Part shown: positions 5,014-53,965 of the stretch, piece after piece
Layout of the letters: every line of letters starts with the position of its first letter
Position numbering within the stretch: position 1 is the stretch's first letter
Source: Oscillospiraceae bacterium
GTDB lineage: Bacteria; Bacillota; Clostridia; Oscillospirales; Oscillospiraceae
Assembly (NCBI GenBank): GCA_015067795.1
Contig: SVLU01000013.1
Coordinates: 1-57,914 of the forward strand
Length of the DNA: 57,914 nt
Direction of reading: 5' to 3'
Program-made: the position numbers and the translations under genes
Notes under the pieces: generated by a model
The model's input: the letters and a program-made list of their open reading frames with translations, nothing else
Database searches by the model: none
Told to the model about the DNA's origin: nothing

Positions 5014-5035
5014 TTTTCACAAGGCAAAAAAAGCA

Positions 5036-5065
5036 TCGGCAGAACTCAGTTGAGTTCTGCCGTTA
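5036..5065. terminator. bidirectional terminator between convergent genes
   Basis: ggcagaactcagttgagttctgcc hairpin. Confidence 0.65.
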
Positions 5066-5067
5066 AT

Positions 5068-5892: not shown

Positions 5893-5899
5893 CGTGTTT

Positions 5900-7018: not shown

Positions 7019-7027
7019 GATACACCT

Positions 7028-8065: not shown

Positions 8066-8109
8066 ATTGAGTCCTTTCTGGCTTTGATTAGTACAACGTT
8101 TTGGTTAAA

Positions 8110-10295: not shown

Positions 10296-10309
10296 GAATT
10301 CTACCTCTA

Positions 10310-11182: not shown

Positions 11183-11205
11183 ATTTCTTTACTCCTTATA
11201 CTTCG

Positions 11206-12390: not shown

Positions 12391-13358
12391 TTATTCATCA
12401 TGCACATCAGTTTATTCTGCGCTCTGTAAAAGAGATTTCTCAGTTTGCCGGAACACTTGATCTTCAGCTTCATATCCCCGAACCCCTTATGGGACATTAC
12501 ATCCTTTTTAAACGCTCGATGCTGTCCCTCCAGGCTTTCACGGTCGGTTTCGGACAGAAGATTGTACTTGCCTATCACCGATTTGGCAGTACGAACAAGA
12601 TACATGGCTGCAGCTTCACCCTCAGCCTTTCCGTTTCGATACATTTGGGACAGTACATAGTAAATCCGAAGCATACTGTCATAACGACGCATAGCACCGG
12701 AGGATGTCATAATGGATGCCGGACGTATTCTGCGGGCATAAAGCTGCTCATGGCAGTGTGCCACCCGACCATCAGCGTTATATACCAGGAAGGTAAAAAG
12801 CTCGTCCTCGTGAATGATGCCCTCTTCAAACCACAGGTTATTCTCAAGCAGATAGCTTGTACGGAAGAGCATCAGAGGAACAGCTGTGCGGTACTCTTCA
12901 TTCCGAAGAAGTCTGAGAAGCATCTTGCGACCTGTTTGCGGCCGATACTGCTCTTTTCGGATGTATCTTGATACATTATCATCCTCTTCGCACTCATCAA
13001 AAAATACATAACCATTGAAAAACACAGCATCAGCGTTTTCCTTATCAGACAGTGCTGTCAGATGCTCCAAGGTATGGGGCTCGATGTAGTCATCGCTGTC
13101 CAGAAAATAGACATACTCACCTTTAGCTTCTCTGAGTCCTGTGTTTCTTGCAGCAGATAATCCACCATTTGGTTGATGAATTACCCGTATTTTATCAGAA
13201 ATATTTATATACTCATCACAAATCAAGCCGCTGCGATCTGTTGAACCGTCATCAACCAGAATGATCTCGTAATCTGTGTATGACTGCTTCAATACGCTGT
13301 CAACACATTCGTTTAAGTATTTTTCTACATTGTATACAGGGATAACAACACTTATCAT
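12387..13358 (-). CDS. family 2 glycosyltransferase (first of three tandem paralogues)
   Basis: MISVVIPVYNVEKYLNECVDSVLKQSYTDYEIILVDDGSTDRSG. Confidence 0.8.
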   Translation of the reverse strand: MISVVIPVYNVEKYLNECVDSVLKQSYTDYEIILVDDGSTDRSGLICDEYINISDKIRVIHQPNGGLSAARNTGLREAKGEYVYFLDSDDYIEPHTLEHLTALSDKENADAVFFNGYVFFDECEEDDNVSRYIRKEQYRPQTGRKMLLRLLRNEEYRTAVPLMLFRTSYLLENNLWFEEGIIHEDELFTFLVYNADGRVAHCHEQLYARRIRPASIMTSSGAMRRYDSMLRIYYVLSQMYRNGKAEGEAAAMYLVRTAKSVIGKYNLLSETDRESLEGQHRAFKKDVMSHKGFGDMKLKIKCSGKLRNLFYRAQNKLMCMMNK

Positions 13359-13361
13359 CTT

Positions 13362-14450
13362 TTATCTTCCCCGAGTTTTCTGGTAAATTTTTCTGACTGC
13401 CTGATTTTTAAAGATACAGTTCAGAACAGGTGTAATATATTTCTTCTTCCAGGCCAAGTTTTTCAGATAATGAACCAAGCCTGTCGCATCCTGATTTTTT
13501 ACATAACCATAAACGGCGGTATATTCCGAATTCATACCGGTACAGGAAATGTTTCCCACCGCACTAATGCATAGGGGATCGGTCACAACCTCTCGGATTT
13601 TTTCAATACGCTGTTTATCCTTTGCCAGACGCATTTCGTTGCGGATCACCTGCGTGCAGAAATAGAAGATGCACATCTGCATGGCATTTGTAAAATCGTG
13701 AGCCTCAAATTTTCCGGTAATTTCAACCATATAGGTCATCAGACTGCGAATGGAGTTCCACATATTTTTCGTGTAGGAACGAGACTTGGAGTTTTCGTTG
13801 GGTCGGTAGTGGTACAGTTCACCGGCAGCAAGAACCACATAGGTATCAGCGTGCAGGGCACACTCCACAGAAAACGCAAAATCCTCACACCTGCGGCTTT
13901 TCTCGTAAAACCGGATATTGTTTTCGTGAACCATGCTTCGGCGATAAAGCCGAGAACAGTTTCCCCAGTCAACAGTACGGAATGTGCCAGTCCTTACCAC
14001 ATGGGGCAGCAGTACGGGATAAATCTGCTCACGTATTTCTTCTCCCCGGTAAACGCCTTCCGGGAATACCACATAATCCGCAAGACCTTCCATCCTGCAA
14101 TAAATGATATCTGCACCCGCCTTCTTTGCCGCCCTGTACATGGTTTCAAACATATCCGGTTCGATCCAGTCATCAGAATCCACAAAGCCGATATATTCAC
14201 CGCGAGCATGAGTTAAACCCACATTTCGTGCAGATGCCGTACCGCCGTTTTCCTTATAATAATACTCAAAATTTGGATGTGAAAGTATAAAATCTTTACA
14301 TATCTGACCTGAAGTATCTCTGGATCCATCATCAATCAGCAAAACCTGTATATTACCCAGCGTCTGGGCTGCTATGCTTTCCAGGCATTCTATTAGATAT
14401 TTTTCAATGTTATAGACCGGGACAATCACACTGACTTTCGGTTCCATCAA
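13362..14450 (-). CDS. family 2 glycosyltransferase (tandem paralogue)
   Basis: VSVIVPVYNIEKYLIECLESIAAQTLGNIQVLLIDDGSRDTSG. Confidence 0.8.
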   Translation of the reverse strand: MMEPKVSVIVPVYNIEKYLIECLESIAAQTLGNIQVLLIDDGSRDTSGQICKDFILSHPNFEYYYKENGGTASARNVGLTHARGEYIGFVDSDDWIEPDMFETMYRAAKKAGADIIYCRMEGLADYVVFPEGVYRGEEIREQIYPVLLPHVVRTGTFRTVDWGNCSRLYRRSMVHENNIRFYEKSRRCEDFAFSVECALHADTYVVLAAGELYHYRPNENSKSRSYTKNMWNSIRSLMTYMVEITGKFEAHDFTNAMQMCIFYFCTQVIRNEMRLAKDKQRIEKIREVVTDPLCISAVGNISCTGMNSEYTAVYGYVKNQDATGLVHYLKNLAWKKKYITPVLNCIFKNQAVRKIYQKTRGR

Positions 14451-15496
14451 TTACTCCTCTGTATGTATTTTTTAATTCTCACAAGGAATTCAACTGTTTT
14501 TTTCACAATTTGCAGGATTAAAAACTGCTTTTTCAGAATCAGCTGACCCATTAGCATATAATATTTGCAGATATAGGCTTTATCCCGCTTCTGCCACAAT
14601 TCCCGGAAGAATGGATCATCGGAAACCTCACTTAGCACCTGCAGCCACCGTTTACGATCCGGCTGATGCTCCGCCAGCAGAACGCCAAAGATCATATTGA
14701 TCCTGCCCTGCATTATCCGGTGGATCTTCTCCTCTTCAAAGCCCCATTTTTTCAAATATTCATCAGTACGCTGATAGACTGTACGGTAGGCATAATAGTA
14801 ATCCGGACGAATATTTCTGGAAATACTGGCGGGATTCCAACGGTAAAAGTACAAAGACTCTTTCAGATATGCCACCCGCTGTGCCGCATCCAGAATTGGC
14901 AGGGTCTGAAACAAGTCTTCTGCCAGACCATTGACCAGGGAATCCTTCCACCGGCTGTAGTCCTCATCCATATCCACGATTTTGCGGGACACAGCTTTAA
15001 TAACAATTGGATTAAGCCCTTTTCCAAGCAAAAACTTATTATAAAGCTCCTGCTTTTGTTCCCCCTGAAATATATAGCCACTTGGGTGATCAAATAAAGA
15101 TATCCGTTTTCCTGCTCCAACTGTTCTTTCGAAGGCATAAAAATACTCGTATATAACCATATCTGCATTTTTTTCTTCGATCATGTGCCGTATCTTTTTC
15201 AGCCCATCCACATCGTTAAGAGCATCATCCGAATCAAGGCATATAAAATAATCACCTCGTGCTTCCTGAAACCCTCTTCTGCGAGTCATCATTAAGCCTT
15301 CGTTCTGCTTATGTATCACTCTGATATTTGAGTGCTCTTCTGCATATTCATCACAAATGCGTGGTGAATCATCCGTAGAACCATCGTCAATCAGAACAAT
15401 TTCAAAATCTCTAAAAGTCTGAGAAAGTACAGAATCCAAGCATTCCCTTAAATACTCTGACGTATTATACACGGGAATACAAACACTAAACATCAT
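14447..15496 (-). CDS. family 2 glycosyltransferase (tandem paralogue)
   Basis: FSVCIPVYNTSEYLRECLDSVLSQTFRDFEIVLIDDGSTDDS. Confidence 0.8.
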   Translation of the reverse strand: MMFSVCIPVYNTSEYLRECLDSVLSQTFRDFEIVLIDDGSTDDSPRICDEYAEEHSNIRVIHKQNEGLMMTRRRGFQEARGDYFICLDSDDALNDVDGLKKIRHMIEEKNADMVIYEYFYAFERTVGAGKRISLFDHPSGYIFQGEQKQELYNKFLLGKGLNPIVIKAVSRKIVDMDEDYSRWKDSLVNGLAEDLFQTLPILDAAQRVAYLKESLYFYRWNPASISRNIRPDYYYAYRTVYQRTDEYLKKWGFEEEKIHRIMQGRINMIFGVLLAEHQPDRKRWLQVLSEVSDDPFFRELWQKRDKAYICKYYMLMGQLILKKQFLILQIVKKTVEFLVRIKKYIQRSN

Positions 15497-15509
15497 TTAT
15501 CAATACCTC

Positions 15510-16082
15510 TTAGTTCTTAGAAGCTTCTCTGGCCGGAATACCGATTATCACCTTACCGGGATTTGGAAAGTCTTTATTCACCACAGCGTTTGCTCCAATA
15601 ATGCAGCCATCTGCTATATGAATTCCACCTATAATTACTGCACCTACACCAATATCCACTTTATTTCCCAACGAAGGAATGCCCGTTTCATTACCTTCTC
15701 CTTTATTGCCAAGGATATTGTTGCCATGTATGACACAGTCATCTCCCAGATTAGCGTTAACGACAACTCCACCGTGCCAAATCTGAGTTCTTCTCCCAAG
15801 CTTTGAATGATTTGCTATCTCAACATTCGTTTTTTCACCTAAAATGTTTCGCTTTCTCAAATAATAGCGATACATCATTTTGCCGTAATACTTACGGAGT
15901 ATGTTGGCAGACTCCATCTGCAGTTCTTCTTTATAAAACTGAGCCATTCTGAAAGCTGACAGGTACTTCCAAATCATAAATCTTTTTTGGTGAATAAAAC
16001 TATTGAAGTGATAATTGAAAGGTACATACAACGCTTTTTCTTCGTTGATAATTTCCTTGACCTCTTTCAAATCCATAAACAA
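15510..16082 (-). CDS. hexapeptide-repeat acetyltransferase (serine O-acetyltransferase / polysaccharide O-acetyltransferase-like)
   Basis: Left-handed beta-helix repeats in the C-terminal half (GDDCVIHGNNILG...VDIGVGAVIIGGIHIADGCIIGANAVV). First gene of the minus-strand operon. Confidence 0.75.
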   Translation of the reverse strand: MFMDLKEVKEIINEEKALYVPFNYHFNSFIHQKRFMIWKYLSAFRMAQFYKEELQMESANILRKYYGKMMYRYYLRKRNILGEKTNVEIANHSKLGRRTQIWHGGVVVNANLGDDCVIHGNNILGNKGEGNETGIPSLGNKVDIGVGAVIIGGIHIADGCIIGANAVVNKDFPNPGKVIIGIPAREASKN

Positions 16083-22245: not shown

Positions 22246-22520
22246 CACAATGAAAAAAATTGTTTTGCAGAAAAAACTATGCCTTGAAGGGCAGCGGTTT
22301 GCTCCCACAGCAAAAAATGCTCTGAGATTATACTGGCGGCTGATAGCCGCCCCTACGAGAAATCATGAAAAAAGATGGATTTCGCCGGGAAAATATTGCT
22401 GAAAAATATACTCTTTTGACACGCTCCTTCCATCTTTGATGGAGGTTTTCTGCCTTTTGTCATTTCGGGAATTGACAAAAATTCTCTCGAATATTACAAT
22501 AATTACGTGAAAATAATGTG

Positions 22521-22555: not shown

Positions 22556-22825
22556 GTAAAAAATAAAGGCAGCGATGGAGATAGTATCGTGGCAATCGCA
22601 TTCACAGAGAGCTGTTGGTGCTGGGAAAACGGCAATGTCTGTCATGAGAAGCAACACTCCGGAGCCGACGGAAGAAAACCCTTTACAGGTGAGTAGAACC
22701 GTCCGTTGCATCGCGTAAAGATGAAAATGAAGAGGATTGTAATCAATCAATTTGGGTGGTATCGCGGAAGATGTCTTTCGTCCCATGGATGGGCGAATGT
22801 CATCTTCTTTTTTTATTTCATTTTT
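22556..22825 (+). ncRNA. T-box riboswitch leader of aspS, probably with a GAC (Asp) specifier
   Basis: AG-box AGAGAG at about 22603. The canonical T-box sequence AATTTGGGTGGTATCGCGG is at 22749-22767 and runs straight into the terminator hairpin gaagatgtc...gacatcttc plus a T-run at 22767-22814. A GAC triplet sits in a plausible specifier position (ccGACgga). Confidence 0.85.
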
Positions 22826-22886: not shown

Positions 22887-24650
22887 ATGTTAAGAACACA
22901 CACTTGTAATGAGTTGACCCTGAACCACATCGGCGAGACCGTAACACTCACCGGTTGGGTAGATACCGTTCGTGACCACGGCGGTGTTATTTTCGTTGAC
23001 CTGAGAGACCATTTTGGTGTTACACAGGTCGTTCTCTCTGATGACAGCCTCATTAACGGCATCAGCAAGGAAACCGTTGTTCTCATCGAAGGTAATGTTA
23101 CCCGCAGAGATGAAGAAACCATCAATCCAAAGATCGCAACAGGCATGATCGAGGTTCGTGCTGACCGTCTTGAGGTTCTTGGCCCAAGCCAGCAGTCCCT
23201 GCCTTTTGAAATCGACAATTCCACACAGACCCGTGAAGATGTACGTCTTAAGTACCGCTTCCTCGATCTGCGTAATCCAAAGATCCACAAGAACATCGTT
23301 CTTCGTTCCCAGGTTCTCAGCTATCTGAGAAGCCAGATGGAAGAAATGGGCTTCATGGAGATCCAGACACCTATCCTCACAGCTTCTTCCCCCGAAGGTG
23401 CTCGTGACTATCTGGTACCAAGCCGTAAGCACAAGGGCAAATTCTACGCTCTTCCACAGGCTCCACAGCAGTTCAAGCAGCTTCTGATGGCATCCGGCTT
23501 CGACCGTTACTTCCAGATCGCTCCATGCTTCCGTGACGAAGACGCACGTCAGGATCGTTCCCCCGGTGAATTCTACCAGCTGGACTTTGAAATGGCATTT
23601 GCAACTCAGGAGGACGTTTTTGAGGTAGCTGAACAGGTTATCTATAACACCTTCAAGAAGTTCACCGATAAGGAAATCTCCGCACCACCTTTCAAGCGTA
23701 TTCCATTCAACGAAGCAATGCTGAAGTACGGCACAGATAAGCCTGACCTTCGCAACCCACTTCTCATTCAGGACCTTACCGAATTCTTCGGCAAGCACGA
23801 ATTCCTGTACTTCAACGGCAGAACTATTCCTTTCAAGAACAAGCTGGTTCGCGGTATCGTTGCCAACTACCTTGTAAAGAAGGACGGCAAGAAGGCATTT
23901 GAAAAGGACATCGACGCATATTCCAGAAGCATCGGTATGCGCTTCGGCGTTGGTTATATCACCCTTGAAAACGGCGAATACAAGGGTCCTATCGCAAAGT
24001 TCCTTACAGAAGAACAGAAGGCTGAGCTTACTGAGCTTGTTGGCATCAAGGATGGCGAATCTCTCTTCTTCATCAGCGATACTCCTGCTGTTATCAACCA
24101 GCTTGCAGGTCAGATGAGAACATGGATCGCAAATGAGCTGAACCTCATCAATAAGGATGCATTTGAATTCTGCTATATCGTTGACTTCCCAATGTACGAA
24201 CGCAACAGCGAAACAAACAAGATCGACTTCACCCATAACCCATTCTCCATGCCACAGGGCGGTATGGACGCTCTTCTCAACAAGGATCCTCTTGAAATTT
24301 TTGCTTACCAGTACGACATCGTTTGCAACGGTATTGAGCTGTCCTCCGGTGCTGTTCGTAACCACAACCCTGAAATCATGAAGAAGGCATTTGAAATTGC
24401 CGGCTACGGCGAAGAGGATGTTAAGGCTAAGTTTGGTGCTCTGTATACCGCTTTCTCTTACGGTGCTCCTCCACACGCAGGCATGGCACCGGGCGTTGAC
24501 CGTATGATCATGCTCCTGGCAGGAGAAGAAACCATCCGTGACGTTATCGCATTCCCACTTAACGGCAATGCTCAGGACGTTATGATGGGTGCTCCCGGCG
24601 AAGTAACCGAACAGCAGCTGAGAGAAGTTCATATCAGAGTCAGAGACTAA
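22887..24650 (+). CDS. aspS: aspartyl-tRNA synthetase, probably non-discriminating since gatCAB follows
   Basis: The 587 aa product has an N-terminal OB-fold anticodon-binding domain and class II aaRS motifs (FRDEDARQDRSPGEFYQLDFE; GAPPHAGMAPGVDR). Confidence 0.95.
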   Translation: MLRTHTCNELTLNHIGETVTLTGWVDTVRDHGGVIFVDLRDHFGVTQVVLSDDSLINGISKETVVLIEGNVTRRDEETINPKIATGMIEVRADRLEVLGPSQQSLPFEIDNSTQTREDVRLKYRFLDLRNPKIHKNIVLRSQVLSYLRSQMEEMGFMEIQTPILTASSPEGARDYLVPSRKHKGKFYALPQAPQQFKQLLMASGFDRYFQIAPCFRDEDARQDRSPGEFYQLDFEMAFATQEDVFEVAEQVIYNTFKKFTDKEISAPPFKRIPFNEAMLKYGTDKPDLRNPLLIQDLTEFFGKHEFLYFNGRTIPFKNKLVRGIVANYLVKKDGKKAFEKDIDAYSRSIGMRFGVGYITLENGEYKGPIAKFLTEEQKAELTELVGIKDGESLFFISDTPAVINQLAGQMRTWIANELNLINKDAFEFCYIVDFPMYERNSETNKIDFTHNPFSMPQGGMDALLNKDPLEIFAYQYDIVCNGIELSSGAVRNHNPEIMKKAFEIAGYGEEDVKAKFGALYTAFSYGAPPHAGMAPGVDRMIMLLAGEETIRDVIAFPLNGNAQDVMMGAPGEVTEQQLREVHIRVRD

Positions 24651-24969: not shown

Positions 24970-26175
24970 ATGAGATTATATGTAAATGAAAGTTCTAAGG
25001 CTGACGGCAAGCGTGTAGTGCTGGACGATATGCTCCTGACAACCGACCTGCCAACCACCGCAGGCTCTAAAATGCTTGAAAATTATGTAAGCCTTTTTGA
25101 AGCTGATATTATCAGCAAGCTGAGAAACGCAGGCTACTCCGTCTGCGGCAAGGCAAATATTGGTGAATTTGCAATCGACCTGCTGGGCGAAACATCCTGG
25201 TTCGGTGCCTGTGTCCGTGAGGACGGCACTCTCACCAATGCTTCCGCTGAGATTTTAGCAGACGACTCCATTGACGCTGTCATCTGCCTCGATGTAAACG
25301 GTGCACCAAGACGTGCTGCCGCTCTCGCAAACCGCGTTTTTATCAAGCCAACCTACGGCACAGTTTCCCGCTATGGCACTATCCCTGTTGCCTGCTCCGG
25401 TGAAACCGTCAGCGTTATGGCAGCAAGCACAGCAAAGTGCCGTGAGGCTCTTTCCGCTATCGTTGGTCATGACGATAAGGACGGCACAAGCCTTTCTGAA
25501 GCACAGTGTGCTCTTCTCAAGTCCGATGCTGAACGTAAGGCAGTAAAAAAGGTTGCTCTCGCTTCCTCTCTCACAGCTTCCGCCGACGAAGAGACAAAGG
25601 CAAAGATCAATGCTTTCCGTGCTTCCCTTGAAGCTCAGGGCATCACAGTAACCGAAATTGACGATCAGCTCCTTGGGGCTGCAAATACCGCATGGAACGT
25701 CCTGATGGCTGCCGAGCTTTGCAACAACGTATCCCGTTATGAGGGCGTTAAGTTCGGCTATCGTTCCCCTAACTACACAAACATCGACGAGCTGTATACA
25801 AACAGCCGTACCGAAGCTTTCGGTGATCTCCTCAAGACCACCATCCTGTTTGGCTCAGATGTGCTTTCCACCGACAATTACATGAAGATGTACGACAAGG
25901 GTCTCAGAGTTCGCAGAGTCATCTCCGAAGCATTTGCCGGTATTTTCAAGGAATATGATGCAGTTCTGATGCCTGCCTGTTCCAAGTGCAGTTATTCCGA
26001 AGCTGATGTTAAGGCAAACAAGTATATCGCATACGAAGAGAACGTTTACACAGCACCTGCTTCCATCACAGGTCTGCCTGCTGTTGTAGTGGGCGGTGTA
26101 CAGCTTGTGGGTGCTCCATTCTCCGACAACAGCCTGCTTGATGCTGCCGAAATCTACGAAAAGGAGCATAAGTGA
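24970..26175 (+). CDS. gatA: GatA-like amidotransferase subunit A paralogue: truncated (401 aa rather than about 485) and lacking the amidase-signature catalytic motif
   Basis: It retains DLPTTAGSKMLENY (the Lys of the triad) and KPTYGTVSRYG. The region that should read GGSSGGSAAAVA....GSDTGGSIR instead reads ASAEILADDSIDAV...LDVNGAPRRAAAL. About 45 N-terminal residues are also missing. Confidence 0.75.
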   Translation: MRLYVNESSKADGKRVVLDDMLLTTDLPTTAGSKMLENYVSLFEADIISKLRNAGYSVCGKANIGEFAIDLLGETSWFGACVREDGTLTNASAEILADDSIDAVICLDVNGAPRRAAALANRVFIKPTYGTVSRYGTIPVACSGETVSVMAASTAKCREALSAIVGHDDKDGTSLSEAQCALLKSDAERKAVKKVALASSLTASADEETKAKINAFRASLEAQGITVTEIDDQLLGAANTAWNVLMAAELCNNVSRYEGVKFGYRSPNYTNIDELYTNSRTEAFGDLLKTTILFGSDVLSTDNYMKMYDKGLRVRRVISEAFAGIFKEYDAVLMPACSKCSYSEADVKANKYIAYEENVYTAPASITGLPAVVVGGVQLVGAPFSDNSLLDAAEIYEKEHK

Positions 26176-27611
26176 TGAGTAAGTACGAAACCGTAATCGG
26201 CCTGGAAGTTCATGTTGAGCTTGCCACCGAATCGAAAATTTTCTGTTCCTGTTCCGCAAAGTTTGGTGCAGAACAGAACGATCACGTCTGTCCTGCCTGC
26301 TGTGGTATGCCGGGTATGCTCCCTGTAACCAACAAGCGTGTTGTTGACCTGGGCGTTACCGCAGGTCTGATGCTGAACTGCGATATCAACCGTGTTACCA
26401 CCTTCGACAAAAAGAGCTATTACTATCCTGACCTCCCCTGCTCCTATCAGACAACTCAGTGGTTTGCTCCTGTCTGTGTGAACGGTACAGTTACCATCGA
26501 GACTTCCAAGGGCAAGAAGGACATCCGCATTAAGCAGATCCATATGGAAGAAGATGCAGGCAAGCTGGTTCATGACGACTGGACCGACACCTCCCTTGTT
26601 GACTTCAACCGTACCAGTGTTCCTCTTATCGAGATCGTCAGCCAGCCTGACCTCTCCAGTGCTGAGGAGGTTGTAGCATACCTGGAACGTCTCCGTTCCC
26701 TTCTCCGTTTTGCAAAGGTTTCCGACTGCCGTATGGAACAGGGCTCCATGCGCTGTGACGTAAACCTCTCTGTACGTCCTGAGGGTAGCGATATTCTCGG
26801 TGTCAGAACCGAAATGAAGAACATGAACTCCCTGTCCGCTATTGAACGTGCTATCGAATACGAAACAGCAAGACATATCGACGCTATTGAACGCGGTACC
26901 GAAGTTCTTGTTCAGGAAACTCGCCGCTGGGACGACATCAAGGGCAAGAGCTACGCTATGCGTAACAAGGAAACCGCAGGCGACTATCGCTACTTCCCTG
27001 ATCCTAACGTAATGCCTATCGTTATTGACGACGAATGGTTTGCAAAGATCACATCCACAATTCCCGATCTCCCTGAAGTTAAGAAGCAGAAGTACATCGA
27101 AAACCTGGGCCTCAGCGAATACGATGCTGACCAGCTTGTTCAGAGCAGAGCTTTCTGCGATTGCTTTGAAGCTGCTTATGCTGAATGCGGCATGGCTAAG
27201 GACGTTGCAAACTGGGTTATCTCCGACTGTGCAAATATGCTGAACAAGAAGCAGATGACTGCTGATATGCTCACCATCGACGGCAAGGCTCTCGGTCAGC
27301 TTATAAAGCTCGTTGCAGACGGTAAGGTCAGCCGTGCAAACGCAAAGAAGATCCTTGCAGTTATGTTCAACGAAAACATTGATCCTGCAGCTTACGCCGA
27401 GGCTAACGGTCTTATCGTTTCCAACGACACAGGCAAGATCAAGGATGTCATCAGAGGCGTTCTGGATGCAGATCCAAAGTCCGTTGCTGACTATAAGAAT
27501 GGCAAGGAAAAAGCTCTCATGGCGCTCTTCGGCAAGTGTATGCGCGAGCTTAAGGGCAATTGCGACCCACAGCTTCTTAGAAGCTATCTCCTTGAAATGA
27601 TCAATCAGTAA
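26175..27611 (+). CDS. gatB: Asp/Glu-tRNA amidotransferase subunit B
   Basis: YETVIGLEVHVEL...CSC....C..C.G.PG..P at the N-terminus. The C-terminal YqeY/GatB tail is present. The ATG overlaps the gatA stop. Confidence 0.95.
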   Translation: MSKYETVIGLEVHVELATESKIFCSCSAKFGAEQNDHVCPACCGMPGMLPVTNKRVVDLGVTAGLMLNCDINRVTTFDKKSYYYPDLPCSYQTTQWFAPVCVNGTVTIETSKGKKDIRIKQIHMEEDAGKLVHDDWTDTSLVDFNRTSVPLIEIVSQPDLSSAEEVVAYLERLRSLLRFAKVSDCRMEQGSMRCDVNLSVRPEGSDILGVRTEMKNMNSLSAIERAIEYETARHIDAIERGTEVLVQETRRWDDIKGKSYAMRNKETAGDYRYFPDPNVMPIVIDDEWFAKITSTIPDLPEVKKQKYIENLGLSEYDADQLVQSRAFCDCFEAAYAECGMAKDVANWVISDCANMLNKKQMTADMLTIDGKALGQLIKLVADGKVSRANAKKILAVMFNENIDPAAYAEANGLIVSNDTGKIKDVIRGVLDADPKSVADYKNGKEKALMALFGKCMRELKGNCDPQLLRSYLLEMINQ

Positions 27612-27622
27612 ACAAACAATTT

Positions 27623-27660
27623 ATGCCTCATCTGAGCTATTTCAGATGAGGCATTTGTTT
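27623..27660. terminator. bidirectional terminator between gatB and the convergent asparaginase gene
   Basis: atgcctcatctga-gctatt-tcagatgaggcat flanked by T-runs on both strands. Confidence 0.75.
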
Positions 27661-27666: not shown

Positions 27667-28701
27667 TCAGTATATCATTTCGTGGTTGATGCTTCTGTTT
27701 ACAAACCGTGATAGCTGTTTTTCATCCAAATCCAGGGCACACCCCAAAAGTGTCTTTACATAAGCCATCTCATTTGTCACACCGCTTATGTGATATGCCC
27801 CCGCCCTGAGAATATCACCTGTGGACTCATATTTATATGCGTCAGGTCTGCACGGAGCGAGGAAAAGCTGAACTCCTACAGATTTACAGCGGTCCAGGAG
27901 ATACAGTATCGAGGAGCTTGAATACGCTCCCGCTCCTCCCTTGCGTTCAACGCATACGGTGTCTGAGTGATAAGTGCCGTGGACTATGGCACGAATTCCG
28001 GTAAGGCTGAAAGCCGCATAATCAATACCCACATAAGGCATTATCCTCATAACGCATGGGAGTAGTGGTTTCATTTTATTCAGATAAAATGTCCCTGTCT
28101 CATAAGCTTTCCCCTGAAGCTTTGCATTATTTGCATCAGTCACGATCATGGCATCAGCACTGAAGAAATCGTCACTGAAATTAGCACACTGCAGCAGATG
28201 TGAACCGTAATGGGTATAGATGACACCATCGCTGTTTCTGTAAACCGCGTAGACATTCGGAGCGATATTGTTCATGATCAGCTCGACAGACGCCCGGAAA
28301 TTGGCGTGTCCGTTGGTATTTTCATAATTTAGCGGAAGCTGGCTGGATACCAAGCAAACAGGAATATGAACACCGGCAAGAACTATCGACAACAGCGAAG
28401 CAGTATAGGCAAGGGTATCAGTACCGTGGAGAATGATGATACCCTGATATGCGTTCCAATCTACCTGATTTAGTAAAGCATCAAGGAGGATATTCCATGT
28501 TTTAACGGTCATGTTCTCGCTCAAAATATCCGTGGGCATTATCACATCAAAATGCACCCTGCCGGCAAAAGGAGAGTTTCCTCTTTCAAATCCGTCAATT
28601 ATATGCACGTTGGCGGCATCGGAATAACGCTGACCAAATGCATCGGTAGACGCACAGATTGTGCCGCCTGTAAGTATTACAAGGATTTTCTTATCGCTCA
28701 T
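27667..28701 (-). CDS. L-asparaginase family protein (type I / AnsA-like)
   Basis: The N-terminal KILVILTGGTI matches the asparaginase Thr nucleophile motif TGGTI, and HGTDTL is also present. The start is placed after a GGGAGGGG ribosome-binding site. Confidence 0.75.
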   Translation of the reverse strand: MSDKKILVILTGGTICASTDAFGQRYSDAANVHIIDGFERGNSPFAGRVHFDVIMPTDILSENMTVKTWNILLDALLNQVDWNAYQGIIILHGTDTLAYTASLLSIVLAGVHIPVCLVSSQLPLNYENTNGHANFRASVELIMNNIAPNVYAVYRNSDGVIYTHYGSHLLQCANFSDDFFSADAMIVTDANNAKLQGKAYETGTFYLNKMKPLLPCVMRIMPYVGIDYAAFSLTGIRAIVHGTYHSDTVCVERKGGAGAYSSSSILYLLDRCKSVGVQLFLAPCRPDAYKYESTGDILRAGAYHISGVTNEMAYVKTLLGCALDLDEKQLSRFVNRSINHEMIY

Positions 28702-31843: not shown

Positions 31844-33757
31844 TCATTCTTCAAATGGTTTAAACTTATGTCCGCTCCAGGACATATCCAAATGCGATGA
31901 GAATTCCAATGTATTTAATCTTATGCCATGAACGATAACAGACAGAATATTCAAAATCATATTAAGTCCGTGACCGAATACCAGAAGGACAATGGCAATG
32001 ATCATAAACAGGAAATTCCCGAACAGCGGCCCTGCCAGTTCGTTGACGGTTGCGGATATTGCCGCACCTGCAAGACCGACAGCCCAAAGGCGTATGTACG
32101 ATACTATGTCGGAAAATACATTAACCACACCAAGCAATACGGAAACGATATTGACAAGACTTGAAAGTATGGATTTTATAATGCTTCCCTCATAGTTCGA
32201 GAACACAAAGCTCATACAGAAGCCTATTCCTATAAGAGCAATGGCAACCGTGCCGATGGGGATGCCGCCTATCACAAGTCCAAAGCTGAAAACTTCAGCA
32301 TTAACTACAAGGCTGAGCACCAAATAAAAGATACCGAAAAGCTGTAATATGGAACCGATATCACCAAGCACTTTTATTGATTTTCCGTTTCTCAACGCAA
32401 CTTTTATATGCGCGACCGTCAGCTGAATAAGGGCCAACAGGAAACAGAATATCTGCAAATTCTGTGCTGTGGTAAGTCCTGCTGTACCATTGGTCCAGAA
32501 CGGATACCAGATCGTATCTCCGTAAACATTTGAGATAAGTGGTATTGACAAGCTTTTAAGCCACCCAGGTAACTGCTCGGGAGAAAGACCAAACCACGTG
32601 CAGGTAAGTGTTCCCCAAAGCACCGTCGACAAGCCGAAAAGACCAACCAGCAGAATGGTAGGTGAAACAGGTTTCTTTGCAATAAGTGATTTAATAATTG
32701 GTATAGCGGCAACGGTGCAGATCAGCAATCCGTATCCGCCGTCTCCGAAAATAATTCCGAAGAAAATGAGTATAAACGCTAAGAACCAACCGGAAATGTC
32801 AAATTCAAAATATCCCGGAACAGTACCCAAAAAGTCTGTCAGCGGATAAATCAAACTTACGAACTTATTGTTTTTAAGCTTGGTTGGAACGTTGTCCTCC
32901 TCGCAGGGCTCTTCTATAAGAAGTCCCCATGAATTCTCTTTCGCAGCACGCTTCAGCTTATCAAGGTTGTCCGCTTCGATGAAGCCCTTAAAATATGCAA
33001 CCGAAACATTGCTCCTATCATCCGCCGACAAGCTTGCATTCGCCATGCCCGTAGCATAGACTTCAAATTCGATTTCCTTTTCACAGGCCTTGATGGCATT
33101 TTTCATGCCTGCGACACAGCCTGCATACGAACCGATTTTCTCGTCAATGGTTTCGATACGGCTGCTGAGTTCAGCGGTTTTCCGCTTCATTTCCGCAACC
33201 GAAAGCTTCGGCAGCTCTAACCTGAAGCTATCCAAAGCCTCAACAGCTTCAGCTTCGCCTTCTGCTCCTGTTTTTATCAACAGGCACTTTACAGTGGACT
33301 TGCCTGCATCTAACCTTATGGTTTTAACACGCTGGTCCAAACCCTCATATTCGGCTTTGGGAACATCGTAAAGTGAAACATTAACGCCCTTGCCTACTAA
33401 ATTCTCAATTTCCCGAGGGTCAATATCACCCCAATTCTTCAATCTCTCAAGCTCTGAATTAAGGGCTATTCTTTCTCCCTGGCATACCTGTCTTTCCTCA
33501 GCCAGAGAAGCAATTTCCCTTGCCGCAGCCAAAGCCTCGGCTGTGGTTAAATCTTTAACCTCCGCATTTTTGCTTTTTTCTATGTGGTATACAGCGTTTT
33601 CAAGCAGGGATATATTATCCGTCAACTCATTTATCCTGTCACCATGACCTTCGGTTATCTCGATATGAAGGATCCCTAATTTGCGGAGTTTTTTAAGTGT
33701 TTCTGCTTTTCTGTCTCCCAGAATTATGAGAGACACCTTTTTCATAGGCACAATCAT
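31844..33757 (-). CDS. ntpI: V-type ATPase subunit I (a-subunit)
   Basis: 637 aa with an N-terminal soluble coiled-coil domain and a C-terminal polytopic membrane domain. Confidence 0.85.
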   Translation of the reverse strand: MIVPMKKVSLIILGDRKAETLKKLRKLGILHIEITEGHGDRINELTDNISLLENAVYHIEKSKNAEVKDLTTAEALAAAREIASLAEERQVCQGERIALNSELERLKNWGDIDPREIENLVGKGVNVSLYDVPKAEYEGLDQRVKTIRLDAGKSTVKCLLIKTGAEGEAEAVEALDSFRLELPKLSVAEMKRKTAELSSRIETIDEKIGSYAGCVAGMKNAIKACEKEIEFEVYATGMANASLSADDRSNVSVAYFKGFIEADNLDKLKRAAKENSWGLLIEEPCEEDNVPTKLKNNKFVSLIYPLTDFLGTVPGYFEFDISGWFLAFILIFFGIIFGDGGYGLLICTVAAIPIIKSLIAKKPVSPTILLVGLFGLSTVLWGTLTCTWFGLSPEQLPGWLKSLSIPLISNVYGDTIWYPFWTNGTAGLTTAQNLQIFCFLLALIQLTVAHIKVALRNGKSIKVLGDIGSILQLFGIFYLVLSLVVNAEVFSFGLVIGGIPIGTVAIALIGIGFCMSFVFSNYEGSIIKSILSSLVNIVSVLLGVVNVFSDIVSYIRLWAVGLAGAAISATVNELAGPLFGNFLFMIIAIVLLVFGHGLNMILNILSVIVHGIRLNTLEFSSHLDMSWSGHKFKPFEE

Positions 33758-34392
33758 AACGAATAAACCTGCCTTTCGGAATCCTCAGCATTGCGAAGGG
33801 CTATTTTGCGTTTTGAAATCTTGGAACGCACCACAGCATTAACCTGCTGGTCTGCCAAATAAATTGATATTTTTCTGATGTTCTCCTCAGTTTCGGGTAT
33901 TTTTACCTTTTCAAACAGGTTGACTCTCTGTGAGGTTGCATGAAGCTCTTCCTGTAAGAGTCTGACCTGCTCATCCAACACTTCCGCCTCCAAATCGAGC
34001 AGCATAGCCTTTTCCATGTGGTTTGCTGCTATATCTACCCAAAGAGGCGTTTTATATAAATCATAGTCTCCTCTGAGAAAATCCGCTCCTTCAAAGACCG
34101 GAATAGCAACACCTGCAATATTCCCAACGCCCTTGCGAATATTGCTTACGGTGATTATTCCATCGGGGAAAGCGTCTTTTTCGCTGAAAACCGAGATCCA
34201 GGACTCAAATCCTTTTTCAAGGTTTTCTTTCTCTTGTCTTACAGCTCTGGCCTTTGGTTCGATGTTGCGGATTTCGGCCTGAAGCTGCTGCTTTTTAAGT
34301 GTCAGAGTAGGCAAATATCTCCGGTACATTTTGAGAGCATCCTTTTGTACCTTTAACTCGTTTTTGGTTAGTTTGATTTTTGCCATAAGCAC
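33754..34392 (-). CDS. ntpD: V-type ATPase subunit D
   Basis: About 210 aa, charged and helical: MAKIKLTKNELKVQKDALKMYRRYLPTLTLKKQQLQ. Confidence 0.85.
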   Translation of the reverse strand: MLMAKIKLTKNELKVQKDALKMYRRYLPTLTLKKQQLQAEIRNIEPKARAVRQEKENLEKGFESWISVFSEKDAFPDGIITVSNIRKGVGNIAGVAIPVFEGADFLRGDYDLYKTPLWVDIAANHMEKAMLLDLEAEVLDEQVRLLQEELHATSQRVNLFEKVKIPETEENIRKISIYLADQQVNAVVRSKISKRKIALRNAEDSERQVYSL

Positions 34393-34400
34393 AGTCCCCC

Positions 34401-35696
34401 TTACTTAACAGGCCAGAATTCATCAGTAAGGTCTGACTTTATACCGGTTTCATCCTTTTCAAAGCAGTCGGCCAGAATTTCCCATCCCAAATCGAGAGCG
34501 TTTTCAAGAGATAAATTGACCGACAGGTCCATGAGCTTGTTTTCAAAAAGCTTGCCGTATTTAAGAAGCTTTTCGTCCCAGCGGTTCATGGCAAAGCCCA
34601 TGTTTTTCTTTTCAAGAGTTTCCTTATAGGAAGAATACAGACGAATCATAGAGTCCATAAGGGCACGGTGGTCTTTGCGGGTTTTGTTGTTTACGTTCTG
34701 CTTCAGTCGGGAAAGCGAACCAAAGGGCTCAATACGGCCGCCCTTAAGGTAATACTGGCCTTCTGTAATATAGCCGGTATTATCGGGAACGGGATGTGTT
34801 ACGTCGTCGCCCGGCATGGTGGTGACAGCCAGAATGGTAACGGAGCCGGAATCGGCAAAGTCAACCGCCTTTTCGTAACGGGCAGCAAGCTGGGAATAGA
34901 GGTCACCGGGATAGCCGCGGTTGGAAGGTACCTGCTCCTGAATAATTGCAACTTCCTTCATGGCATCGGCATAGTTGGTCATATCGGTGAGCAGTACCAA
35001 TACGTCCTTGTCCTGCAAAGCAAACTGCTCTGCAACTGCCAGAACCATATCAGGGATCATCATACATTCAACGGTTGGGTCGGCTGCAGTATGAATAAAC
35101 ATAACTGTCTTGCTTAAAGCACCGCCCTTTGAAAGGGTGTCCTTAAAATAAAGAAAATCATCATATTTAAGGCCCATGCCGCCAAGAACAATTACATCTG
35201 CCTCCGCCTGCATTGCAATATGGGCAAGAAGCTCATTGTAGGGCTCGCCGGAAATGGAGAAAATAGGAAGCTTCTGAGAAACAACCAATGTATTGAACAT
35301 ATCGATCATCGGAATGTTGGTTCTCATCATTCGGTTAGCAAGAATTCGTTTGGTCGGGTTAACGGAAGGTCCGCCGATAGGTGTCATATTTTCGGCAAGT
35401 GCCGGACCGTTATCTCTCGGCTCACCTGAGCCGTTAAAAATACGACCCAAAAGATTCTCGCTGAAGGATACACGCATTTCGTGACCTAAAAAACGAACCT
35501 CGTCACCTGTGAAAATGCCCTGTCCGCCTGCAAACACCTGCAAGGAAACAATGTCACCGTCGATTTTATTAACCTTGGCAAGTGATTTGCCGAAGCGTGT
35601 ACTTATCTGAGCAAGCTCATTATATCGAACATCTTTCGCCTTTACGGTAATAACGCTGCCTGTGATAGATTCAATTCGGTTATATACTTTATTCAT
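34401..35696 (-). CDS. ntpB: V-type ATPase subunit B
   Basis: 431 aa homologous to the regulatory (non-catalytic) nucleotide-binding subunit. Confidence 0.9.
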
Positions 35697-35698
35697 TC

Positions 35699-37468
35699 TT
35701 ACTCACCGCCCTTTAACAAAAGCTCTGCCTCATGGCTGAGTTTGCCCTGACCGTCCTTGTAAAGCCGGTCGATTTCCGCTTCAGCCTTCTTGAAGGCATC
35801 GCTTTCAAATTCCGTATAATTCCAGTTGATAAATCTCTGACGCATACGGTTGAAGAAGCTGCGTGCGTCGTCTTTATTATCAACCGCAAATTCACTGCCT
35901 AAAACAAGTATCAGCTTATCGGTAACATAGCGCTGACGTAATGTGCCGCAGTTTGCTTCGATGGGGTCAAAGGAATTCTGCTGCAGATAAACCGCGTCGA
36001 GCATTTCCTCTTTAAGATAAATAATATAGTCGGAAAGACTTGTGCCTTCTTCGCCAACAACCTTCATCATGGAGTTGATCTCATCACCGTGGTTAAGCAT
36101 ATTTTTGAAAAACTCGCTCTTTTTGCGATCAATAACACCGTTGTACTTGGACCAGGAGATAAGTGCGTCAATCGCAGGATACTTTCTTGCGTCAGAGCGT
36201 TCACGGGAAAGACCGTGGAAAGCACCTACAACCTTTAAGGTTGCCTGAGTTACCGGCTCTTCAAAGTTGCCGCCTGCCGGTGAAACCGTGCCGCCTATTG
36301 TTACGGAGCCTGTACTTCCATCGGGTAAGCGAACATAGCCCGCTCTTTCATAAAATGAAGCAATGTAAGATTCCAGATAAGCAGGAAAAGCTTCCTCGCC
36401 GGGGATTTCTTCAAGTCTGCCGGACATTTCTCTGAGAGCCTGTGCCCATCGGGATGTGGAGTCTGCCAGAAGCAGAACATTCAGACCCATCTGACGGTAA
36501 TACTCAGCAAGAGTTACCGAGGTATATACCGATGCTTCTCTGGATGCTACCGGCATGGAGGAGGTATTGCAAATAATAATGGTGCGTTCCATGAGAGAAC
36601 GGCCTGTTTTTGGGTCGGTAAGCTCAGGGAATTCGGTAATCGTTTCAACAACTTCACCGGCACGCTCACCGCAGGCTGCGATAATAACAATATCCACATC
36701 TGCGTACTTGGATGTGGTGTGCTGTAAAACGGTTTTACCTGCGCCAAATGGTCCGGGAGTACAGTATGTGCCGCCCTTTGCAACCGGGAATAAAGAGTCG
36801 ATAACGCGAACCTTTGTCTCCATGTTTTCAACAGGTGCCAATCTTTCGCTGTAACACTTTATCGCACGCTTAACAGGCCACTTGAATGACATAGACAGAG
36901 AAATATTTTTTCCGCGTTCATCGGTAATAACCGCAATAGATTCATTTACGGTATAAGCACCCTTTTTTGCAATATATGTCAGGGTATAATTTCCCAGCAG
37001 ATAAAAAGGAACAAAGATCTTATGGGTAAATACACCTTCCGGAACGGTTCCTATGTATTCGCCGGCACGCAGAGTATCGCCGATTTTGGCGGTAGGAGTA
37101 AACTCCCACTTTTTCTCAGCATTGAGGCTGTCCATATAAACACCGCGTTCCAGGAACCAGCCTGCCTTTTCAGCTAATTTAGGCAGCGGATTTTGAAGTC
37201 CGTCATATATCTGACCAAGCAGACCCGGGCCAAGCTGTGCCGACAGCATATGTCCTGTAAATTCAACTTCATCGCCGCACTTTATACCATTTGTCATTTC
37301 ATAAACCTGTATCTGAGCGACATTTCCGCGAATACGGATAACCTCGCTTTTAAGTGCGGTATCTTCAACTATAACATAGCAAATTTCATTCATGGAAACA
37401 TTGCCCGTAAATTCAACAGACACTAAGTTTCCGTTAATACTAATAACCTTACCTGTTCTTTCGGTCAT
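35699..37468 (-). CDS. ntpA: V-type ATPase catalytic subunit A
   Basis: 589 aa with Walker [10 protein letters not shown] and the A-subunit non-homologous insertion. Confidence 0.9.
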
Positions 37469-38022
37469 AATATATCCTCCAACCTTCTGCTGTTTAAAGC
37501 GGAGTCGTAAAAATATCTGTATGCGGCCTCTCCGACAGCCGCATCAAACTGCCTTGTTCGCAAAATCAGTTTCAGCTTAAGACCATAGTAAAAGACAAAT
37601 TCCTCCGAAAATTGATCCATTGGTCTGAGAGTTTCCAAAAATTCCATCCGATAACCGTCAAGGAATTTTTCCGCTTCCAGAGGATTTTCAATCTCTACCG
37701 CTGTGCTTGCCACCTTTACAAGTCCTATCGGCAGGCATCTGTTTCCTATGTCAAATGGCTTTTTCATTTTTTCTGCCCTGACTTTACCAAGAGCAAGCCG
37801 CAAATTCCGTTCTCCTTCATTCCATGCTTCAACCAAAGCTGAGCTTGATTTTTCACAGTTTATCTGCGGCACAAGTGCTAAATTGTTTAATTCTTTCAGT
37901 GTCTTTTTCCCTAAAAAGCGGCTGCATAGCTCTGAAAACCGCTCCTCAGTAATAGGTGCCGGCATATTTTCACCGATTGCGTCCAAACACGGCAGCTGTG
38001 AAATCAAATAATATTCAGCCAT
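37465..38022 (-). CDS. V-ATPase operon protein of unknown function (DUF2764-like, as in spirochaete/chlamydial second-type V-ATPase operons); it occupies the slot where subunits C and F would be
   Basis: 185 aa, located between E and A. It resembles neither C (about 330 aa) nor F (about 100 aa). Confidence 0.5.
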   Translation of the reverse strand: MAEYYLISQLPCLDAIGENMPAPITEERFSELCSRFLGKKTLKELNNLALVPQINCEKSSSALVEAWNEGERNLRLALGKVRAEKMKKPFDIGNRCLPIGLVKVASTAVEIENPLEAEKFLDGYRMEFLETLRPMDQFSEEFVFYYGLKLKLILRTRQFDAAVGEAAYRYFYDSALNSRRLEDIL

Positions 38023-38024
38023 AA

Positions 38025-38633
38025 TTATTCAGCCTCTTTCAAAAGCTCCGTAACCCTGGGGCTCAGGTAGTTTGATAACATATCCACCACAGCCTCGGCA
38101 GAGTAGTCATAATAAACACCGTCGCTATTTTCGGCAATACGGAAGCCTCCGTCAAAATTGTCATTTGCCCTGAGCGTTACGCCCTTTATCATTCTGTCCT
38201 TAAGAGCCGCAAGGATAGCTTTTTCAAACCGCTTCAAATCTTCGCTGTTCATAACCACTGAGATATCCTCTGCATCCGGCTTGCTTGCCCATCCCTCAAC
38301 AGCCTTTACAACAAGCTGCACAAGTGCATCCGAGGTGTACACATCAGTAACACGTTCTCCGACAATAGCCTTAAGCTCTCTCGCAACGCTTTCTCTGAAG
38401 GAAATAAGGAGATTACGTCCCGCCTGTCGGATAGAGTCCTCGCCCGACTTCACCATTCGTTCATTCTCAGTTTTTGCATTAAGTATAATTCTGTCTGCCT
38501 GTGCCTGTGCATCTGCAATAATTTTCTCAGCCTGTTCGTTCGCAGCATCAACTATTGCCTTGGCTTCAAATTCCGCAGCCTCTACGCCGTCCTTTTTTAT
38601 CTGGTCAATAAGCTCCTGTAATTGTATTTCCAT
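38025..38633 (-). CDS. ntpE: V-type ATPase subunit E
   Basis: Starts at MEIQLQELIDQIKKDGVEAAE, after an AAAGGAGAAAG ribosome-binding site. N-terminal coiled coil plus a C-terminal globular domain. Confidence 0.75.
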   Translation of the reverse strand: MEIQLQELIDQIKKDGVEAAEFEAKAIVDAANEQAEKIIADAQAQADRIILNAKTENERMVKSGEDSIRQAGRNLLISFRESVARELKAIVGERVTDVYTSDALVQLVVKAVEGWASKPDAEDISVVMNSEDLKRFEKAILAALKDRMIKGVTLRANDNFDGGFRIAENSDGVYYDYSAEAVVDMLSNYLSPRVTELLKEAE

Positions 38634-38983
38634 AAGACTTTCTCCTTTATTGTATTTACACTGATCACAATCTTGACATGATCCGACACTCATTTTATGC
38701 AATGGGTATCAGGTTGCGTTTGCCTCCCCTGTTCACAGGGTTTTTCTGCAATACCGACAGCAAAATTGGTACAGTTAGTTTCCGTGCAACTGATTTTTAC
38801 GGCTGTAATTTTTCAATGCCGCGAATTCTGTTTTAACATCTTCCCCAGACTATTGTATCATTAAAACGCTAAATAATATAGTGTAATTTTTTGAATTTTG
38901 AAAAAATTTTTACCAAAATATTTGGGGTCACCAATCTCAATCGTTCCCGCAATCGCATACCGCAAGCTTAGTCTGCTCTAAAA

Positions 38984-46001: not shown

Positions 46002-46054
46002 AATCTTTCTTCCTTTCCTTAATAACTGTTGAATAAAATCCTGCAATTTGGGCT

Positions 46055-46601: not shown

Positions 46602-46844
46602 ATGAGTGGAATTAAATTAGACATTCATAATAAGGCTTTTCCGGACCAGGTCAAGTATGTACGCATGGTTTTGCAATTAAGCCAGACAGAGCTTGCTGAG
46701 CAGATCGGTGTCTCCTACGCAACCGTCAGCCGTTGGGAACGCGAAAACCGCAAGCCGCAGCTTGCAATGCTGGGCAAGTTCTATTCCTTCTGTTTGCGTA
46801 ATGGCATTGAGCCGGAAAACACAGAACAAGGAGATCAGATATGA
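46602..46844 (+). CDS. XRE-family HTH transcriptional regulator (small, Cro/CI-like)
   Basis: LSQTELAEQIGVSYATVSRWERENRKP. Confidence 0.85.
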   Translation: MSGIKLDIHNKAFPDQVKYVRMVLQLSQTELAEQIGVSYATVSRWERENRKPQLAMLGKFYSFCLRNGIEPENTEQGDQI

Positions 46845-53947: not shown

Positions 53948-53965
53948 CAATTCCCCACCCTTCTT

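Follow-up and report, generated by a model that had tools for sequence, protein, structure and literature searches.

A GatA-derived pseudoenzyme in the aspS-gatCAB operon of an Oscillospiraceae bacterium and its relatives

The operon and the residues replaced in its GatA homologue

We examined a 57,914-nt stretch of DNA from an Oscillospiraceae bacterium (assembly GCA_015067795.1, contig SVLU01000013.1), here called the 58-kb window, which carries an operon of the aspS-gatCAB type. On the plus strand, the operon runs from a promoter-like site through a T-box leader, aspS, gatC, a homologue of gatA that we designate gatA', and gatB to a hairpin terminator (Table 1). In the textbook GatCAB amidotransferase, GatA hydrolyses glutamine and the ammonia tunnels to GatB. 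An initial annotation of this DNA had proposed that the T-box, aspS, gatC and gatB are intact and that the GatA homologue lacks the amidase catalytic residues. Both proposals were borne out. The T-box and the three other genes each passed the curated cut-off of their family, and the alignments described below revealed a loss in GatA' that is larger than had been claimed.

The gatA' gene encodes a GatA-derived pseudoenzyme that retains the GatA fold. Its product matched the Pfam family Amidase (PF01425) over residues 17–390 with 162.8 bits, against a cut-off of 27. The score against the NCBIfam GatA equivalog TIGR00132, 253 bits, was below the cut-off of 481.1, although this was still the best-scoring family. 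In the AlphaFold model (predicted local distance difference test score, pLDDT, of 80), the first ten structural matches found with Foldseek were GatA chains, with template-modelling (TM) scores of about 0.8. The segments comprising residues 66–79 and 254–299 were modelled with low confidence and may be interface regions.

Residues were mapped by HMMER alignment to Staphylococcus aureus GatA (PDB 2DF4, chain numbering), and MAFFT alignments were made in addition, one to a pair of canonical GatAs from related operons and one to 70 canonical representatives. The roles assigned to GatA' residues rest on the cited papers and on these alignments. The Ser-cisSer-Lys triad (S. aureus numbering) is wholly replaced in GatA': Lys79 by Asp19, cis-Ser154 by Leu88 and the nucleophile Ser178 by Ala112, all within a protein that matches the amidase-signature profile. 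The initial annotation was right that both serines are gone, but it had the catalytic lysine retained. The lysine in question, in DLPTTAGSKML (TTAGSKML), is not catalytic, and the true Lys79, in the motif GIKDN, corresponds to Asp19. Because Lys79 is also replaced, the whole triad is lost and not two thirds of it. The two serines had moreover been assigned to each other's motifs; the nucleophile Ser178 belongs to GSDTGGSIR, and cis-Ser154 to GGSSGGS. A triad intact at shifted positions was looked for in three independent alignments and was ruled out by the agreement of HMMER (five PDB GatAs) with both MAFFT alignments. An alternative conserved Lys/Ser/Ser set was not found in the GatA' family alignments either. 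As judged from these alignments, GatA' is very probably catalytically dead.

The replacements extend beyond the triad. Residues Tyr309, Arg358 and Asp425 bind glutamine in S. aureus GatA (bioRxiv 10.1101/733030), and the equivalent Arg and Asp have been described in yeast GatA (PMC4027206); all three positions differ in GatA' (Table 1). The Gly/Ser-rich signature GGSSGG...GxDxGGSIRxP reads DGTLTNA...LDVNGAPRRA, with changes at G153, S155, G157, T175, G176 and P182. Compared by MAFFT with the two canonical GatAs, GatA' also lacks about 60–70 N-terminal residues, the NPWxxx loop and a C-terminal 10-residue loop. On the other hand, canonical GatA has 73 positions with at least 90% conservation, and GatA' keeps 42 of them, including D174, G177, R180 and KPTYG.VSR.G, the last of which had been noted at the outset as a conserved motif. 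GatA' descends from GatA but lacks the catalytic features by which the GatA equivalog and the amidase-signature family are defined.

The gatA' reading frame had been described as continuous and not as a frameshift artefact, and we agree with this description. The open reading frame (ORF) is intact, it has a ribosome-binding site of its own (GAAAGGAAG, 7 nt before the ATG), and the same form occurs in hundreds of species. Because gatC ends 23 nt before the gatA' start, a longer N-terminus of GatA' is not encodable. Downstream, the likely start of gatB is the ATG at 26175, which overlaps the gatA' stop as TGATG.

The specifier AAC of the T-box was read off the alignment GAAGcAACA, and a T-box stood at the same place in each of the 13 related loci whose upstream sequence reaches far enough. 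The T-box sequence predicts firmly that the operon of the window is induced by uncharged tRNA(Asn). The aspS product contains the Pfam domains tRNA-synt_2, OB and GAD, and we take it to be a non-discriminating enzyme because aspS is under Asn T-box control. A 580-aa ORF lies antisense to aspS at 22890–24632 (−), and similar antisense ORFs lie over gatA' and gatB. Their recurrence in related loci stems only from conservation of the sense genes; they are shadow ORFs, not genes.

Table 1. Positions of the operon features, of the replaced GatA' residues and of the adjacent asparaginase-like gene in the 58-kb window
Feature	Position	Strand	Remarks
Sigma-70-like promoter	22472..22500	+	TTGACA-17-TACAAT, 11/12 matches, upstream of T-box; consensus scan only
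T-box leader, specifier AAC (Asn)	22563..22788	+	Rfam RF00230, 108.5 bits, gathering score 93
aspS, bacterial-type aspartyl-tRNA synthetase, 587 aa	22887..24650	+	NF001750, 776.8 bits, cut-off 443
gatC, 93 aa	24665..24946	+	TIGR00135, 72.3 bits, cut-off 47.1; PF02686
gatA', triad-less GatA homologue, N-terminally truncated, 401 aa	24970..26175	+	Between gatC and gatB
Catalytic Lys79 to Asp19	25024..25026	+	GIKDN to VLDDM; P75-M-G-I-K79-D-N vs R15-V-V-L-D19-D-M
cis-Ser154 to Leu88	25231..25233	+	P-G-G-S154-S-G-G-S vs D-G-T-L88-T-N-A-S
Nucleophile Ser178 to Ala112	25303..25305	+	SDTGGS178IRQP vs LDVNGA112PRRA
Gln-binding Tyr309 to Trp242	25693..25695	+	Alignment to 2DF4
Gln-binding Arg358 to Thr291	25840–25842	+	Alignment to 2DF4
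Gln-binding Asp425 to Asn358	26041–26043	+	Alignment to 2DF4
gatB, 479 aa from GTG 26172	26172..27611	+	NF004012, 596.3 bits, cut-off 338; domains GatB_N, GatB_Yqey
Hairpin, 14-bp stem, terminator-like on both strands	27623..27654		Between convergent gatB and asparaginase-like gene
Asparaginase/GatD-fold protein, 344 aa from ATG 28701	27667..28701	−	ORF extends to TTG 28737

The GatA' family, its neighbour gene and other triad-less lineages

When GTDB was scanned with a profile, one genome being taken for each species, at least 578 relatives that share the GatA' form were recovered, in Oscillospiraceae, Acutalibacteraceae and other Clostridia metagenome-assembled genomes (MAGs). The best 80 of these, taken with 10 kb of flanking sequence on either side, constitute the related loci of this study (81 loci with the window). 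All 80 come from Oscillospiraceae, Acutalibacteraceae, 'Ruminococcus' or Clostridia MAGs, and their carriers live in ruminant, horse, deer and other animal guts, the record titles naming rumen, hindgut, human-gut and similar samples. The protein database held more than 120 clusters (90% identity) of proteins of about 400 aa that are 61–69% identical to GatA'. A further subfamily, with proteins of 394 aa that share 47% identity with GatA', is common in human-gut Acutalibacteraceae and accounted for more than 120 clusters at 90% identity. In public records these relatives are labelled 'hypothetical protein' or 'amidase family protein'.

The residues that replaced the catalytic machinery are themselves conserved in most cases. 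Among the 80 members, position 19 (the former Lys79) is Asp in 78 and Glu in 2, position 88 (the former cis-Ser154) is Leu in 77, position 242 (the former Tyr309) is Trp in 79, position 70 is Asp in 77 and position 145 is Glu in all 80. Residues C142, S143, E145, R114 and R115 are invariant in the family. The column of Arg358 holds A, T, V or M and that of Asp425 holds N, A or S. Position 112, which held the nucleophile, is Ser in 26, Thr in 24, Ala in 23, Met in 6 and Tyr in 1, and this lack of constraint is as expected if the residue no longer acts in catalysis. In the census of the 73 positions conserved in canonical GatA, 31 had changed, among them K79D, G130D, D211E and P182A (100% each) and S154L, G176N and Y309W (95% each). 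The fixation of many changed positions to new residues indicates that the pocket was remodelled and is itself under selection. From its residue composition, the former pocket appears notably acidic.

GatA' is clearly maintained by purifying selection, and its gene lies in every locus between gatC and gatB, with translational coupling. The ratio of nonsynonymous to synonymous substitution rates (dN/dS), calculated for 12 pairs, was 0.07–0.12 for gatA', and in the same pairs it was 0.012–0.035 for gatB, 0.015–0.033 for aspS and 0.02–0.17 for gatC. In a canonical control operon the values were 0.048 for gatA and 0.020 for gatB. Set against gatC, gatB and aspS, the gatA' values suggest a constraint like that on the scaffold subunit GatC. 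Eleven of the 80 loci have no aspS upstream of gatC-gatA'-gatB (L019, L028, L035, L037, L042 and 6 more). In 5 of 6 such loci that were checked, a T-box was not found at the gathering score, which implies that the dead-GatA operon is not always under Asn T-box control.

The flanks of the 81 loci are scrambled. Only one neighbour recurs, the asparaginase-like gene, which was found in 16 of the 80 related loci as well as in the window; every other flank gene cluster occurs in at most 5 loci. It takes at least three arrangements: upstream of the T-box and aspS on the same strand (L010, L014, L021, L026, L053, L062, L067, L071, L074 and L077), 9–75 bp after gatB on the same strand (L031, L070 and L078), or convergent after gatB (the window, L016 and L023). 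Only about 20–26% of loci have the gene within 10 kb of the operon. One member is solitary, with no gat gene within 10 kb, and another is divergent and 5.5 kb from the operon, with six genes between. The state of GatA' residue 112 (S, T or A) did not correlate with a nearby asparaginase-like gene.

The product of this gene has the asparaginase fold, and its TGGT motif, which holds the Thr nucleophile, and its HGTDT motif are invariant. It scored 86.5 bits against type I L-asparaginase (TIGR00519; cut-off 260.5) and 73.3 bits against GatD (TIGR02153; cut-off 324), below both. At the position of the catalytic lysine, no lineage down to 30% identity has a lysine, and the segment reads HLLQC, HLMQC, RLTQC, HLEEC or similar. 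This absence, in the segment equivalent to K162/K254, was judged from family alignments, as the profile matches end before it; a PDB sequence search with the C-terminal half of the protein gave no useful match. The dN/dS of the gene was 0.11–0.27. On sequence grounds, the family (about 345 aa) is a large, distinct clade of the asparaginase superfamily.

A metagenome search with the profile of this protein supplied further loci (L081–L160). The linkage persists in lineages in which the protein is just 35–50% identical. On human-gut contigs (L086–L096), the order is asparaginase-like gene, a 692-aa AspS::GatC fusion, a dead GatA' and gatB. The fusion, seen at 11404–13482 of L086 and also in L088–L093 and L096, amounts to a hard-wired piece of a transamidosome. 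The asparaginase-like gene also stands beside operons with a fully canonical GatA (L095/L136 and L133/L143). Two more subgroups, 40% and 31% identical, had no gat genes within 10 kb, and no T-box was found at the gathering score in the distant operons L086, L136 and L133. Fusions between asparaginase-like and gat genes were sought and none was found, the longer matches being mis-called N-termini or unrelated tails. Overall, the asparaginase-like gene is genuinely, if loosely, linked to Asn-type aspS-gatCAB operons. The linkage is older than, or independent of, the degeneration of GatA, and the chemistry of the protein itself is uncertain.

Loss of the triad is not confined to the family described above. 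In an exhaustive profile search of representatives at 50% identity, 78 of the best 150 matches lacked the K-S-S triad. They include truncated (370–430 aa) and full-length (450–490 aa) proteins, in which D, E, S, Q or other residues stand in place of K79. All the contexts examined were gatC-gatA'-gatB: beside aspS (L169), beside the dcw cluster in a Peptococcaceae MAG (L166) or on short contigs (L165 and L168). At two loci, L163 (5450–12016) and L164, a gatC-gatA'-gatB set stands in tandem directly before a canonical gatC-gatA-gatB. The GatA' of this pair is full-length (484 aa) and reads VGVDDT, AGAAAAA and DTGGALRQ at the triad motifs (K to D, S154 to A, S178 to A), and the two GatB copies are 63% identical. 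The tandem arrangement shows duplication to be one route to the triad-less state. It looks like an early stage, in which duplication and triad loss preceded truncation.

Proposed function of the GatA' complex and comparison with known systems

The initial annotation had offered two mechanisms: free ammonia, with GatA kept as a structural scaffold, or another amide-donor subunit. For the second, the asparaginase/GatD-fold gene next to the operon is a concrete candidate. The explanation that we favour, which we put at about an even chance, is that GatA' acts as a scaffold or ammonia port and that the ammonia comes from outside GatA', mainly from ambient NH3/NH4+. As the structural A subunit of an Asp-tRNA(Asn) amidotransferase, GatA' would still assemble with its partners GatC and GatB; folding and assembly with GatB require both GatC and GatA (PMC2330236). 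Glutamine would not be hydrolysed by GatA', so that the amide nitrogen would have to reach GatB as ammonia made elsewhere. The most likely source would be the ambient NH3/NH4+ of the gut habitats from which all carriers come. Habitats of this type are ammonia-rich. Ammonia might enter through the remodelled acidic pocket (D19, D70, D108, E145 and W242) and the old tunnel, and we speculate that the acidic residues and the Trp form an ammonium entry site. Where the linked asparaginase-fold protein is present, it could add local ammonia, together with aspartate, from asparagine that the cell would otherwise be unable to use, either in the cytoplasm or docked on the complex. Amidotransferases accept NH4Cl in vitro in place of the glutaminase reaction (PMC4027206).

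Three points weigh against this explanation. Free ammonia alone does not explain the recurrent asparaginase-like linkage. Tse8, a type VI secretion effector of Pseudomonas aeruginosa and a non-glutaminase look-alike of GatA, impairs Pseudomonas protein synthesis when it enters GatCAB (bioRxiv 10.1101/733030), which suggests that ambient ammonia is not always enough. Finally, the canonical and degenerate gatCAB sets in tandem at L163 and L164, in another lineage, make an intact second set possible.

One alternative is a four-component amidotransferase, in which the asparaginase/GatD-fold protein would be the true amidohydrolase subunit; docked on GatC-GatA'-GatB, it would channel ammonia from asparagine or glutamine into GatB by way of the dead GatA', as a bacterial counterpart to archaeal GatDE. 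Its status as sole recurrent neighbour, its varied placement around the operon, its persistence at low identity (including beside the AspS::GatC fusion with a dead GatA') and its invariant TGGT and HGTDT motifs all speak for such a subunit. However, the lysine of the Thr-Asp-Lys triad is absent across the family, the N-terminal domain of GatD is missing, and most loci lack the gene within 10 kb, to which the solitary and the distant members must be added. The gene also accompanies canonical GatA, other triad-less lineages have no such neighbour, no fusion with a gat gene was found, and residue 112 varies independently of it. We therefore regard the four-component enzyme as unlikely. The more general proposal, that a Lys-less asparaginase-fold protein was recruited as the amidohydrolase in a large group of gut Clostridia while GatA became an adaptor or ammonium port, is likewise doubtful. 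If true, it would be a previously undescribed kind of amidotransferase, a bacterial and independently evolved counterpart of archaeal GatDE on a GatCAB chassis, and the lineages with a canonical GatA and an asparaginase-like gene would represent an intermediate stage. The second-set argument has much the same standing, and we consider it improbable: a canonical gatCAB and/or AsnRS elsewhere would do the essential work, and the dead-GatA' operon would be a paralogue with a specialised or regulatory role, for example encoding a backup enzyme, working on ammonia only, that tRNA(Asn) starvation induces, or a GatB working with a borrowed canonical GatA. The tandem pairs at L163 and L164 provide a precedent. 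Clostridium acetobutylicum, too, reportedly has gatCAB in duplicate, with an Asn T-box controlling one set. On the contrary side, no second gat gene was found within 10 kb in the 80 related loci or in the window, and Pfam searches of 39 further ORFs of the window revealed no second gatCAB, asnS, asnA/B or glnS. Nor did the 10-kb flanks of the 80 related loci contain a gene for AsnRS or for an asparagine synthetase. A second copy would moreover leave unexplained both the purifying selection on the operon's own GatA' and the ammonia source of the GatA' complex.

That GatA' is still a hydrolase of glutamine or another amide, with a new catalytic set (Ser/Thr112 with another base, or Cys142), is very improbable. 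In its favour, Ser or Thr stands at position 112 in 50 of 80 members, selection acts on the pocket, and C142, S143, E145, R114 and R115 do not vary. Against this, the window and 23 of the 80 members have Ala at position 112 and 6 have Met, so that the position is not constrained; the general base Lys79 has become Asp and cis-Ser154 Leu in nearly all members, and all three glutamine-binding residues are replaced. The low score of GatA' against the curated GatA family and the labels of its relatives in public records could also be those of a decaying pseudogene or of an assembly or frameshift error. This reading has practically no chance of being correct. It is ruled out by the intact frame with its ribosome-binding site, the occurrence in at least 578 species, a dN/dS of about 0.1 and the new fixed residues of the pocket.

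The system can be placed among those already described. It shares with canonical GatCAB (S. aureus 2DF4/2F2A, P. aeruginosa 4WJ3 and Aquifex aeolicus 3H0L) the common gatC-gatA-gatB order, the GatA fold and an intact GatB and GatC; it differs in that GatA' has lost the triad, the glutamine-binding residues, the N-terminal segment and two loops, and fails TIGR00132. In C. acetobutylicum, an Asn T-box is reported to drive an operon of AspRS and the amidotransferase for tRNA-dependent asparagine synthesis. That operon is of the same type (Asn T-box, aspS and gatCAB, also in Clostridia), but its GatA is reportedly a normal glutaminase, whereas that of the window is dead.

The amidotransferase GatDE is restricted to archaea according to PMC2811023. 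Its GatD subunit, which pairs with GatE, carries a Thr-Asp-Lys triad and an additional N-terminal domain. The asparaginase-like protein resembles it in fold only, being without the lysine and the N-terminal domain and having 344 aa as against about 424–438 aa in the matched GatD chains. Its putative local partner is GatB with a dead GatA, not GatE.

Among described cases, Tse8 comes closest: a GatA homologue that lacks glutaminase activity and has divergent equivalents of Y309, R358 and D425 (bioRxiv 10.1101/733030), it binds GatB and GatC in the place of GatA. However, Tse8 keeps the triad and is a toxin delivered into rivals, where it harms the recipient, whereas GatA' is a resident, operon-encoded and conserved subunit. 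The yeast mitochondrial GatFAB is likewise a heterotrimer in which NH4Cl bypasses the glutaminase step and changes in the scaffold modulate the use of free ammonia, but its GatA is a working glutaminase with an intact triad (S154-cisS130-K52; PMC4027206). The AtzE-AtzG complex (PDB 6C62, 'vestigial protein complex'), found among the structural matches of GatA', combines a GatA-derived amidase fold with a small partner resembling GatC. AtzE has left tRNA metabolism and is an active amidase, whereas GatA' remains part of the gatCAB operon but no longer has a catalytic function. Searches of the open-access literature aimed at such cases brought up neither a resident GatA lacking the triad nor an asparaginase with linkage to a bacterial gatCAB. 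The system of the window is apparently an undescribed, conserved variant of GatCAB with a pseudoenzyme A subunit.

Hundreds of species thus keep, under selection, a GatA that is predicted to be unable to hydrolyse glutamine. They offer a natural experiment on whether free ammonia can suffice for an amidotransferase in vivo and on the non-catalytic roles of the A subunit in folding, in the tunnel and in gating, and they link translation to the nitrogen status of gut ecosystems. They also point to a possible asparaginase-type amide donor in bacteria, although GatDE is held to be archaeal. Because GatA' is labelled 'hypothetical' or 'amidase family protein', metabolic reconstructions may miss gatA or wrongly assume glutamine-dependent Asn-tRNA synthesis, a problem that touches many rumen and human-gut Oscillospiraceae and Acutalibacteraceae.

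Remaining features of the window

No Pfam match at E≤1e-5 was obtained for four further ORFs of the window, at 47868–50342 (+, 824 aa), 42411–43757 (−, 448 aa), 39868–40953 (−, 361 aa) and 45165–46046 (−, 293 aa). The 824-aa ORF follows a regulator of the 7TM-LuxR type (46841–47851). Two copies of the Gut-1 small RNA (Rfam RF01706; 50.5 and 77.8 bits) lie on either side of a region adjacent to a tRNA-Leu(CAA) gene, with this group of features at 38–111, 1119–1195 (−) and 1240–1326 (−). A cell-surface polysaccharide cluster at 1434–16082 encodes at least 8 glycosyltransferases, an ABC-2 exporter pair, a TupA-like ATP-grasp protein, a hexapeptide acyltransferase and a 770-aa nucleotidyltransferase fusion. 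A V/A-type ATPase operon, with subunits I, D, B and A and small subunits, occupies 31844–38702 (−). At the edge of the window stands a 5S rRNA gene (57764–57880), with a queuine tRNA-ribosyltransferase gene (tgt; 55710–56930) and a tyrosine recombinase gene (53059–54018) nearby, all on the minus strand.

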